From the NCBI RefSeq assembly GCF_037042905.1, contig NC_087245.1:35528001-35592000 (forward strand): a stretch of 64,000 bases of DNA, written 5' to 3'. A model generated the notes under the pieces. The model saw only the letters and a program-made list of their open reading frames with translations, was not told the DNA's origin and searched no databases. Source of the DNA: Lytechinus pictus. Lineage: Eukaryota. How positions within the stretch are numbered: position 1 is the stretch's first letter; every line of letters starts with the position of its first letter. Shown here one piece after another: positions 18,726 to 23,700 of the stretch. A program made the translations under genes and the position numbers.

Positions 18726-20638
18726 AAGATGTACTCAAAACTTAAGGGCGACCCTCTAGAAAAAAAAAAGCAGCGGCCGATCCGAAAATGTGGATGAAAA
18801 TATTTTCCGCCTCATTTTTATTTGGAGAAAGCAGGATCGGTATACTACAAAATTCAGCTTGTGCTTTGCGCTCGCATTATTAATCTAGGCCTGACGAGTT
18901 ACCATTATCTTGTTTGTAAGAAGAAAAAAAAACAACCCTAAGATGTACTCAAAAGTTTAGTCTTTCGCAAGGACTAACCCATCAAGAAAAGTAGCTTTTA
19001 GCGGCTGATCAGGAAAAATGTACTTGAAAAATGTTTTCCGCCCCCTTCCCTCCATTGGCGATAGCTGGATCTGCCTCGATATTATGTTTTATTCTTATGA
19101 CTACAAAATGTGTCGTTATCAGGTCAATTATATCCAAAAATTTCTGCTCGCTCTTCGCGCTTGTATTGTTTTTTGTTTGTTTGTTTTAGTAAGACATGCA
19201 TCATCTTCATTATATTTCTCGTAAATGTCCGTAAAATATCACTTTTTAGTTTAAATATATCAAAAATATTTAGCAAGTGCATCGTGTTTGCATTTACCAC
19301 CGTCAAATTTTGCCTTTACATCCTTCTTAATCACATTTCTATTACCATTCACATTACATACTGTACATTAAGGTGTGTTAGTCATACCAACACAATCGAT
19401 GCGAGAGGCTGATCCAAGCTATTGTATTATTTGAATGACATACCATTCATCACTTTGCAATCGTTTTCATGGGTGTGACTGCCACACTGAGGTTGCTTTT
19501 TGGCATCACTTTAGCGCAAAATCGCTTAATACATTCAGCATATTTTCCTTTTATCTGAAGCAAATGAAGATACTTATGGTGGCATGAAGCCTGCCAATAT
19601 TCTCGTTGATACATCCTCTTTCATATCGAATGTTGAGATTGTGAATTTATTACTAACATTCATGATAAATCTGATCAATAACAGTGCATGTGCATTTTTT
19701 TTACCAAAAACATACAAATTTTGGCCAAAAGTCTTAATTCTTTCAAAATTTATATATCAACCGACTTTAAATCGAAGAATAAAGGGATTGTAGTAAATTC
19801 TACCAACAAAATAATATATAATTTCGCATTTTATTAAGGCCTATCTCCATTTTCTGGGTTGAAAATGTGACAAAATACATTAGTGTATCCAAGTCTCCGA
19901 TATGCAGTAAAAAAGCAAAATTTCTGAAAATTGAATTTTCAAGTTTGAGACATTATAAGTTTGAGACTAAAAACGATATCAATTTGGAATTGATTTCGCT
20001 TAAAAATTGTATATTAGGAAAGTTTTCTAGAAATTTTTGAGGCGATTCCTTTATTTTCTTTAGATTTATTGTAAATCATGTATTTCGCAAATTTTCAATT
20101 TTTTGGAAAAAATTCTCAAAATTGCACTTTTCTTATCAAAATCTCAGCCGAATTAGCTTTTCATCACTCATGAATAGTATCAACTTGTAGAAATTTTTTT
20201 TTATCTTTCATATAACACTAATTTTGTGGCAAATGAATGTTTGTGTCGGAATCTATGTACGAAAAACCAAATCCCATGAATATGGCGGCCATTTTGGACG
20301 CCATCTTGAATTTGAACCCCATGGGACAATATTTCGTTTTGGGAACATCAAAATTCATTCAATAGACATCTTACGGATTACAAAAAATGTAGGTTAAACA
20401 AATATATCATTCGGGTGCATGGAAACCCTATCTCTCTCCCCTACTAATAGGGCATGCATTTAGAACATGATGATGATGCACATCTTTTGTATAGCGCCAT
20501 ATATCTGTCAAAGACATTCAAAGAAACATTTTGGGAGGAGCCAGCCGAGCCAGCCAATCTGGGTCGCCTATAGAAGGGAGCACACACAGAACTGTGAACG
20601 GCAGGTCTCCCCTCACAAGAGATAATCAAAACACACCT

Positions 20639-20698
20639 TGTGCAGAGAAATGTCCTCCAGAACAGCTGGATCCTCAGTCGAGGTCCTCCTGCCAGCCA
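20639..20698 (-). repeat. 60-bp exact direct repeat, 3' UTR copy
   Basis: Identical to 24295-24354. Confidence 0.95.
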
Positions 20699-20779
20699 TT
20701 TCGGCCCATTATCCTCGATATGGCTATGTGGCAGGAGGCGGGCCAGCAGCATCAAGACAAGATGCCACCTCCAGCTGCT
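20661..20779 (-). ncRNA. Candidate pseudoknotted hammerhead ribozyme
   Basis: CUGAGGA, GAAA, AUA triplet, G10.1-C11.1 and Watson-Crick stems I (6 bp), II (5 bp), III (6 bp) plus three extra helices, folded by eye. Confidence 0.65.
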
Positions 20780-23700
20780 TGTTTGGTAAGTTGGCTTTAT
20801 ATTTATTCCAAATCCAGGCTGAGGACCTTGTGGCGATCTCCATTAAGTCCAAAGCCAGCTTCCTTCTGTTGGTTGTCCCCATTCTTGAGAGGAAGAAATG
20901 GAGAGACTTTGTCGCATAACCTCTGCAGCCAGTCTCTACTGGGTAGTAGTCTACCTTCCATCCCCTCTCCTTACATTCTAGGATAAGTCCGGCATATTTT
21001 GACGTCTTGTACTCATGGGCCGTCTCAATGTTCTCCTCCCATGGCACAGTCAGTTCACAGAGGATGACAGACTTGGACTGCTTCGACCAGACTACTATAT
21101 CTGGTCGCATGTTGGTAGTCGTAATCTCACTGGGAAAGGTCATCTGCTCATCCAAGTCTGAGACCAATTGCCAATCTCTTGCTAGACAAAGGAGCCTACT
21201 TGTGTGTTGTCTAGCTTTTCTGTTGGCTCCAGTACTTGTTCCAGCCTTCACAAATGAGATCATCGCTGGAGCTTTTAATGGCTTTGTCTGGTTTGCTTTC
21301 TCAATAGTGATCTTTAGGGCATTGCTCAGTTCTTTCAAGATCTCATTGTGCCTCCATGTATACAGGCCTTCTACCAGAGACACCTGACAATTTGATAGAA
21401 TGTGTCTGAGTGAACCCTTCTTTCCACATCTATGGCAATTCTCGTTCTCAGTCTTGGCCCACTTCTTCAGGTTATGAGGAGAAGGAAGAACGTCGTAGGT
21501 TGCTCGTAACAAAAATTTGAGTGTGCCTGATTCCATTTTCCATATGTCTTTCCAGGATAGGGACCTTGGTTCTACACACTCCCATCGACACCAAGCTCCC
21601 TGCTGCACAAGGCCAACTGCTTTAGCGACACGTCGTTCCTCCTCTTTGTGACGGATTTCGTCAGAAACCATCTTCCGCTTCATTTTTGTGCTTGCCTTAA
21701 AGAAGTACTGGGTTGGATTCATGCCTAGCCCTGCTCTATTGGTTTGTGTAGGCCCAACCATATCCTTGTGCCTCAGCCGAGATTCCATTTCCTCAACTTC
21801 TTGCTGGGCATTCCACTTGCGTCCTGTGCGAATGTCTGGCACAGTCCCCCTAACGACCTGGTCGCTGGAGTCCCTAAGTGTCGAGTACATGTGAGCCTTC
21901 TTCACTTTAAACTCCTCTGTAAGAGCGCTCAGGGGTAACTTCAGCTTTGTGGAATGGCCATAGAAGCTTATGTTTGTTGTGCATGGAGGGATGCCAAGCC
22001 ACTTCCGGGTGTGCACTGAGATTCTTTGCTCCATCCTCTCGACATGCGTCATTGCAATCTCGTACATCATCAATGGCCACATGATCCTTGGAAAGAGACC
22101 GAACTTTAGGCACCACAACTTGAGTTTATTTGGGAGGGTACATTTATCGATACGCTTAAGTCCATCCTCTACCATTGTTCGGATCTCATTTATCTGGTTC
22201 TTATCAGATAGCTCCTTTGTGAACCAGTGTCCTAAGCTCTTGACAGGGGCATCTGATATCGATGGAATGGCCTCACCACCAACGGTGTAGTGTGTCCTAT
22301 CATCTAACTTTCCTTTCTTCATGGTCAAACTCCTTGACTTCCTCGGTTTGAACTTCATCCTGCACCAGCTTATCAATTGACCCAGCCGTTCCAGAACCTT
22401 CTGTGCATCGGCTGTGCATGGATTGAGTAGGGTAAGATCGTCCATGAAGGCTCGTATCGGTGGCAGCTCAAGCCCAGGTTCGATCTCAACACCTCTACAA
22501 CTGGAACTTGCAGCTCTAGTTATGACTTCCATTGCCATGACAAATAGAATTGGGGAAATGGCACACCCCATCGGGATGCCTACCTCGAGGGGCTGGTAGG
22601 CTGTTGTATATTCCTTGGTAGAGAATCTCATCTTAAAGTCCTGAAAGTAACACTTTAGGAAATCACCAAGTTTCTCAGGAATGTAGAAGAAGTCCAAGGT
22701 AAACCATATCATTGAGTGTGGCAATGAACCGTATGCATTAGCCAAGTCCAGCCATAGAACTGATAGGTCCATCCTCCTCCTCTTTGCCTCTTGGATCGTG
22801 TGCCATATCATTGCAGAGTGCTCAACGCAGCCAGAAAACCCTGGAACTCCTGCCTTCTGGACAGATGCGTCAACAAAGCCATTTACGAGTAGGTACTTGG
22901 AAAGCCGCCCAGCGAGGATTCCCATCATGATCTTCCCGTCAATATTGAGGAGAGATATTGGACGGAATGATTCTATCCTCTCAGCATTCTTTTCTTTAGG
23001 TATGTACACACCTTCAGATTTATTCCATTCCTTTGGCACCACGTTATTTCGCCACAGTACCCTTAACAGTCTCCACAGTAGCCTCCTCATCCTGGTACAG
23101 TATTTAAATACTTTATATGGCACACCATTAGGTCCTGGGGATGAGCCAGCCCTTGCCTTCTTAACAAATCTTTCTACCTCAGATAGGCGTGGAGGGTCTA
23201 TGTCAAAGTTTTCACCTGGAGAAGTTGGACGTACCAAGTTTTCCATAGGAGGCAGGGGTAGGTTCCTCACACCGTCAGAGTAGGTGTTTTTCAGGTGGTG
23301 TTGTAACTCCTCTTTAGTGGCCTTCAGTTCACCAGATCTCACAGGGTTGAAAAGAGCTTTGGTGAAGGCAAAGGGATCTTCATAGAATTTCTGTAGTTTC
23401 TTAGCCCGTCCTTTCCTTTTCCTTCTAAGCTTCTCAGCCTTGGACAGAGCTCTCAACCTCCTTCTCTGCTCATCTCTAAGGTCATCTAGAGCTTTCATTT
23501 CAATAGCATTGTTATTCTTTCTTGCCTCCTTCCAACGCCGCTGTAGGGCTCGTACACTGTGTCGTATGTCATGGATTTCTTGCTGTCTTCTACTAAGCCT
23601 CGATGTAACCGCCTGTGGCTTCGTACTGGCACAACCAAAGTTGTCGACCCCGTACTGATATATTGCCTCCATCATAGAAGAGAGTCTCTCTTCGGCGTTT

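Follow-up and report, generated by a model that had tools for sequence, protein, structure and literature searches.

A putative hammerhead-type ribozyme with a core opened between A9 and G10.1 in the spacer of head-to-tail HERO/Zebulon-like retrotransposons

The minus strand of the window (the whole 64,000-nucleotide stretch of DNA analysed here) carries, across the end of the ORF of a HERO-like retrotransposon, a fold that appears to be a working hammerhead-type self-cleaving RNA whose core is opened between A9 and G10.1. Judging from the hammerhead core nucleotides and the covarying stems, the RNA probably cleaves after H17. The wider proposal is tentative, and we rate it a little short of evenly balanced: HERO/Zebulon-type LINEs would replicate through a ribozyme-made circular RNA and internal priming, and the A9/G10.1-opened, four-way-junction hammerhead would be a seventh natural connectivity with relatives of the unsplit SGC form.

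The ribozyme was found on the minus strand from 20779 to 20661, with every strand and coordinate exactly as the initial annotation of this DNA had parsed them. The fold comprises 120 nt and 45 bp and is monomeric and pseudoknotted. Its parts, in the 5' to 3' order of the RNA, are as follows.

20770 to 20779, minus strand: 5' strand of helix X, which pairs with 20661-20670 and is one arm of the predicted four-way junction that replaces the A9-G10.1 link.
20745 to 20769, minus strand: hairpin H, 9 bp, which adjoins X without an unpaired base and whose last base is joined to G10.1.
20740 to 20744, minus strand: 5' strand of stem II, beginning with G10.1; it is shifted to the front of the fold and pairs with 20703-20707.
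20730 to 20738, minus strand: 5' strand of helix E, which extends stem III and, as the interaction helix does in type SGC, bridges the distal ends of stems I and II.
20719 to 20725, minus strand: stem III strand ending in U16.1 (20720) and H17 (20719), with the predicted cut at 20719/20718.
20713 to 20718, minus strand: stem I strand after the predicted cut, with covariation in three families.
20694 to 20707, minus strand: block G, made of the stem II 3' strand, GAAA (20699-20702) and the stem III 3' strand.
20685 to 20693, minus strand: 3' strand of helix E.
20671 to 20683, minus strand: second strand of stem I (20678-20683) and the CUGAGGA core (20671-20677).
20661 to 20670, minus strand: 3' strand of helix X, directly after A9.

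Six helices of about 45 bp had been claimed, and the lengths (X 10, H 9, II 5, E 9, III 6, I 6) do add up to 45 bp. A custom descriptor of the split order gave one match in the window when both strands were searched, anchored at 20677 (CUGAGGA), 20702 (G12), 20720 (U16.1), 20744 (G10.1) and 20769 (hairpin start), with H17 at 20719. The nested part of the fold, that is X, H, E and III, is present in the minimum-free-energy structure (-61.7 kcal/mol, z -4.5, equalled by none of 200 shuffles), and stems I and II cross these helices as pseudoknots. A small competing hairpin in the nested fold of family A, the window's family, covers stem I and the core, and we count this against an active ribozyme. 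From the connectivity, X and H would stack into one helix with a nick at which A9 and G10.1 lie side by side, which makes a four-way junction. The stop codon of the ORF (20724-20726) stands 5 nt upstream of the predicted cut and the last 18 codons overlap the ribozyme; because the stop comes first, cleavage would spare the protein. Stem I lies wholly downstream of the predicted cut, and X, II, E and III span it with 30 bp. The two predicted cleavage products co-fold at -59 kcal/mol versus about -19 and -20 apart, and since these four helices would still join the products, ligation should be favoured.

The split fold follows the ORF in each of three families: family A (32 matches from 32 candidates), family B (about 50% protein identity to family A; 40 of 48 candidates scored) and family C (about 40% protein identity to family A; 16 of 16). 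With one representative per family, and hence three lineages, anchored on the core by a descriptor that itself requires pairing, all 29 compared stem positions in I, II, III, H and X are paired in all three families. Both partners differ at 17 of them and one partner at 2; the remaining 10 are invariant, and no pair is broken. Stems I, II and III together keep 17 of 17 positions paired, 10 with changes on both sides. Stem I keeps 6 of 6 pairs and helix X 6 of 6 junction-proximal pairs, each with five changed on both sides; stem II is nearly invariant, with four of its five pairs unchanged and one changing. Overall, the ribozyme regions of the three families are 52-61% identical. Families A, B and C are alike at the opened junction: X and H abut without an unpaired base, the first pair of H is G-U, H ends directly on G10.1, and A9 runs straight into X. 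Helix E has 9, 6 and 8 bp in the three families, and 6-10 bp across five lineages when two distant relatives (L077 and L085, described below) are included.

The core nucleotides that had been claimed to be in register are present in all five lineages. CUGANGA stands directly after stem I, GAAA lies between stems II and III, the A15.1-U16.1 pair is kept, and the NUH triplets read AUA, GUA, GUA, CUA and GUU. The catalytic positions (CUGANGA, GAAA, U16.1-A15.1 and H17) are thus fixed while the stems turn over. Covariation in the three families supports the two pseudoknots and the insertion of two helices between A9 and G10.1, both of which had been read from the window alone; together with the two unsplit relatives, it also supports the strand assignment, the predicted cut position and the HERO-like host. 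The split form was seen in one genome only.

It might be argued that the fold is chance pairing in GC-rich sequence, or an ordinary type I, II or III hammerhead, acting as monomer or dimer, that has been misread. The split-form descriptor gave no match in 25,124 dinucleotide shuffles of the 4.1-kb element (103 Mb), which speaks against chance. Genome-wide, the motif pattern gave 32 matches, all in families A, B and C, against 5 in a reversed control. The initial annotation had also predicted that standard hammerhead searches would overlook the motif, and with E values as high as 5 allowed, Rfam indeed recognised no hammerhead in 19500-26500. A stem II of at least 3 bp after A9 with any GAAA within 300 nt is impossible in families A and C, and family B offers a single unconserved 3-bp option, in one copy. 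We ruled out the ordinary or dimeric reading on the Rfam null and this lack of an alternative stem II after A9. Covariation refutes both versions of the argument, assuming that the three families are homologous at the ribozyme position, and we give them next to no credence. The stray genomic pattern matches L086 and L087 were rejected, having neither CUGANGA nor the fold. The bare motif pattern also occurs at 74 viral loci, none of which has the split fold, and two protein scans found no relatives in viral contigs.

The element that carries the ribozyme has the following further features.

20724 to 24275, minus strand: single ORF of 1183 aa with an N-terminal C2H2-like motif, RT, a CCHC knuckle and a PD-(D/E)xK restriction-like endonuclease.
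20619 to 20660, minus strand: tail to the usual insertion 3' end, the putative reverse-transcription priming site, 100 nt after the predicted cut.
24292 to 24354, minus strand: 5' direct repeat, 63 nt, of the 3' part of the ribozyme, beginning 20 nt after the predicted cut position.

One ORF with RT followed by CCHC and PD-(D/E)xK places the element in the R2 group (RLE), and the best solved relatives of the ORF protein are R2 proteins. The element does not have the GIY-YIG endonuclease and telomerase-like RT of Penelope-like elements. The protein is 41-42% identical over about 950-1,100 aa to the Tetraodon proteins AAN12398.1, which we take to be Zebulon, and BAC82599.1 (42%), presumably HEROTn. 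Proteins that cluster with its closest match bear the name Lytechinus pictus, which makes a sea urchin host very probable. The title of a 2003 paper by Bouneau et al. names a tandem structure for a Tetraodon element. HERO elements have been described as not site-specific. We observed no fixed target site: flanks differ among 30 fetched loci, some being microsatellites, and there is one clear 19-bp duplication. Copies at L009, L011, L085, L101 and L181 adjoin (TAG/TAC)n or (TA)n microsatellites, either a mild target preference or an effect of the tail. The window element is flanked at its 5' side by a 710-nt ORF fragment of another RLE family in the same orientation (24355-25061; 87-91% identical to L051, L053 and L059, with about 25% protein identity to the window element) and at its 3' side by a different repeat; we saw no evident target duplication. 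At 24228, close to where the frame starts, the window copy has a 1-nt indel relative to other copies. Elsewhere in the window, a minus-strand ORF at 8415-9191 matches the Neurexophilin family (E 1.9e-8) and is probably a host-gene exon. The genome (G000) holds several more RLE families (C7, C14, C17, C18, C21 and others) with ORFs of about 1,000 aa and 25-28% identity; at three loci of such families, no motif was found within about 250 nt after the ORF.

The window element is a head-to-tail unit, and the ribozyme lies in the spacer that separates each copy from the following one. The initial annotation had placed it at the 3' end of the element; in fact, it precedes the usual insertion 3' end by 100 nt. 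Among 28 other fetched copies of family A, 22 end at 20615-20622, 100 nt past the predicted cut, 2 continue into the 5' UTR, and 4 stop 10-30 nt earlier. The distance from the predicted cut to the insertion 3' end is about 95 nt in families B and C and about 110 nt in L085. All eight copies that include a 5' UTR start have it joined to tail or ribozyme sequence. Three of these are family-A copies (3 of 3: the window's, L061 and L062), and in family B the tail is included in 5 of 7 matches to a joint-to-ORF-start query, the other 2 beginning near the ORF start. No copy beginning cleanly at the 5' UTR was seen among the family A and B copies examined. In the window copy, the 5' repeat runs into the 5' UTR, and about 45 nt are absent from this joint, exactly across the usual 3' end and putative priming site. 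Circular permutation is seen in L061 and L062, which span the tail-to-5'-UTR joint and continue past the predicted cut by 0.8 kb and more; L062 is 264 nt short of one full unit, contains an internal deletion and has the same 6 nt at both junctions. The same joint occurs in a contig of run X18, and the unit in family A is 3,702 nt. L183, of family B, contains two complete ribozymes in a partial tandem, L077 is a closed contig of 4,403 nt with a 119-nt terminal overlap, and two family-B copies begin 21 nt apart. In a separate family-A fragment (L063:4820-5170), ORF position 23739 is followed at once by the last 12 nt of the usual 3' end, a skip of about 3.1 kb shortly after priming. Local alignment shows a conserved stretch shared by families A and B where their 5' UTRs start (L183:590-650 and the L062 5' UTR), with none of 5,000 shuffles scoring as well; it may be a signal for transcription (a promoter), for translation or for priming.

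These copies bear on how the ribozyme might serve its element. By hammerhead chemistry, the RNA would cleave after H17, at 20719/20718. A partial-tandem transcript with two ribozymes would then be cut to unit length (3,702 nt in family A), and the ends, held by X, II, E and III, would be ligated to a circle. The RT of the element would prime internally on this circle, about 100 nt past the joint, and copy to or beyond one round, leaving truncated, permuted and partial-tandem insertions. Priming at that distance past the joint would account for the narrow range of insertion 3' ends, for the permuted and partial-tandem copies and for the skip in the window copy. The predicted cut coincides with neither end of most insertions, which we count against this model. 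We regard this chain of cleavage, unit-length cutting, circle ligation and internal priming as about evenly poised between right and wrong.

Tandem and permuted copies could equally arise from uncut tandem transcripts or template jumps, and an active ribozyme might act without a circle. In that case, only the 5' ribozyme would cut, the template would be linear, and such copies would come from uncut read-through transcripts or template jumps of the RT. Three of the 32 family-A matches have real 5' ends inside the ribozyme, 6, 9 and 20 nt after the predicted cut, as expected for run-off at a cut 5' end, and no family-A match begins in the 30 nt or so of ribozyme that precede this cut. This is a weak hint, since there are only three such ends and the 5' ends in families B and C do not cluster at the predicted cut. 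The tight 3' ends of insertions also fit a linear template, as does the slow cleavage of assayed SGC ribozymes, 0.007-0.19 per min in the part of PMC10085705 consulted. Against it, L061 and L062 run past the cut site by the distances given above and L183 passes it twice, and two ribozymes of the same sequence, one upstream and one downstream, would need to act in different ways. We consider a linear template unlikely, though a serious competitor of the circle.

The preferred model of an active ribozyme gains support from distant relatives. In the accessible part of their 2023 paper (PMC10085705), Eckert et al. treat the hammerhead as three blocks, S, G and C. They demonstrate cleavage by type SGC and take it that block C, with its covalent A9-G10.1 link, cannot be interrupted; one extra unpaired base at the A9/G10.1 step of natural hammerheads is reported as tolerated in the portion of PMC4209133 available. 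Outside the genome, we found 12 related loci, 11 of them in prokaryote assemblies and presumably eukaryotic contaminants. Six of the 12 have at least 400 nt after the ORF, and two of these six carry an unsplit type-SGC candidate there.

L077:1140-1270: unsplit SGC candidate (III 7 bp, I 5, II 2, E 8) on an RLE contig in a prokaryote MAG.
L085:1180-1290: unsplit SGC candidate (III 4 bp, I 3, II 3, E 10) on an RLE contig in a prokaryote MAG.

Both were scored with an unsplit descriptor whose stem II was relaxed to 2 bp. Shuffles of the L077 and L085 spacers, regions chosen after the matches had been seen, gave no match in 75,443 and 111,015, and 2 of 25,124 element shuffles gave weak unsplit matches. 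A split-form parse of L077 (score 22) was weak and was dropped for the better unsplit one. The other four relatives show no such motif in the available 415-1,293 nt, and a metagenome scan returned one locus (L074), without a motif in its 415 nt after the ORF. In L077 and L085, block C is uninterrupted, with at most 1-2 bases inserted between A9 and 10.1; in families A, B and C it is interrupted. The unsplit SGC, the form shown to cleave, comes after the ORF in these two relatives, and this supports the preferred model.

The relatives also bear on a reading in which the split form is a fold derived from a hammerhead that does not cleave, or cleaves only with a protein, and is kept as a signal for RT binding or priming. 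The covalent A9-G10.1 link, assumed to be required in the part of PMC10085705 consulted, is absent from it, and the constant spacing of 95-110 nt between the fold and the insertion 3' end is what one would expect of a recognition element. Yet the catalytic positions stay fixed in five lineages despite the turnover of the stems, which a binding site would not obviously need, and the unsplit topology proven by assay stands at the same place in relatives. Such a recognition role seems improbable to us, clearly more so than a linear template.

Three RNA runs with the same species label were mapped to the element. With about 6% of each run read, 3, 5 and 5 of 30 element bins had any depth, and at this near-zero coverage there were no end pile-ups, so the runs are uninformative either way for cleavage in vivo. 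A very high-copy repeat just past the element, at 20467-20523 of the window, draws nearly all mapped RNA reads.

If the fold is a ribozyme, several consequences follow. Natural covariation breaks the stated rule that block C of the hammerhead is uninterruptible. Searches by descriptor or with Rfam are then blind to such forms, and many ribozymes in animal genomes may have gone unrecognised. RNA modules could be attached at the A9/G10.1 junction, a site that would be new for this purpose. Non-circularly permuted hammerheads, hitherto from environmental sequences, would now be placed in an animal genome with a host and a job. The results also bear on why HERO/Zebulon-like elements are head-to-tail and on whether circular templates are usable by an R2-group RT, a question relevant to gene insertion tools based on retrotransposons.

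The closest known system is type SGC (HRIMA-1 and variants), as far as the consulted part of PMC10085705 describes it. The block order S-G-C, site-GAAA-CUGANGA, is the same, so that the order itself, which the initial annotation had taken to be unprecedented, was already in print. Both ribozymes have two core pseudoknots, and in both the distal ends of stems I and II are held together by an interaction helix, here helix E. A linker of 5 nt leads from stem I to stem II in the window ribozyme, against typically 3 nt in type SGC. Unlike type SGC, in which the segment made of the 5' strands of stem II and helix E follows A9, families A, B and C have helix X after A9 and the stem II strand 5' of the cut site, so the segment stands at the front. 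On this connectivity, the split form is a type-SGC ring that has been closed and then reopened between A9 and G10.1; it either descends from type SGC or parallels it. The window ribozyme lacks the nested three-way junction and circular order C-G-S of types I, II and III, which the Rfam models describe, and because its block C is interrupted it falls outside all six named hammerhead types. What is new, as far as found, is that the core is opened at A9/G10.1 and that the host is an RLE element. In open full-text literature, we found no report of two helices at A9/G10.1, none of a hammerhead of this kind in an RLE retrotransposon, and no paper linking HERO or Zebulon to a hammerhead; the term type-SGC occurs there in a single paper. 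The HERO clade and Zebulon of Tetraodon resemble the window element in protein and in tandem structure, with no ribozyme reported in that literature.

The hammerheads of Penelope-like elements and non-LTR retrozymes likewise lie in the repeated end of a head-to-tail retroelement, according to the accessible parts of Cervera and De la Pena 2014 (PMC4209133) and the preprint of Li et al. 2026 (10.64898/2026.07.22.740005). For Penelope-like elements, cleavage, circularisation and more-than-unit reverse transcription are proposed there too, and the same model of cleavage, a circle and internal priming is found in the consulted part of PMC4209133. Those hammerheads are type I or minimal, often dimer-dependent, and belong to GIY-YIG elements, whereas the window ribozyme is a pseudoknotted monomer in an RLE element. 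The HDV-like 5' ribozymes of R2 and L1Tc, as described in the sources available in part, are also self-cleaving RNAs that free a non-LTR RNA from a longer transcript. They are of another ribozyme class, at the 5' end and downstream of their own cut, whereas the window ribozyme straddles its own predicted cut, 100 nt before the insertion 3' end.
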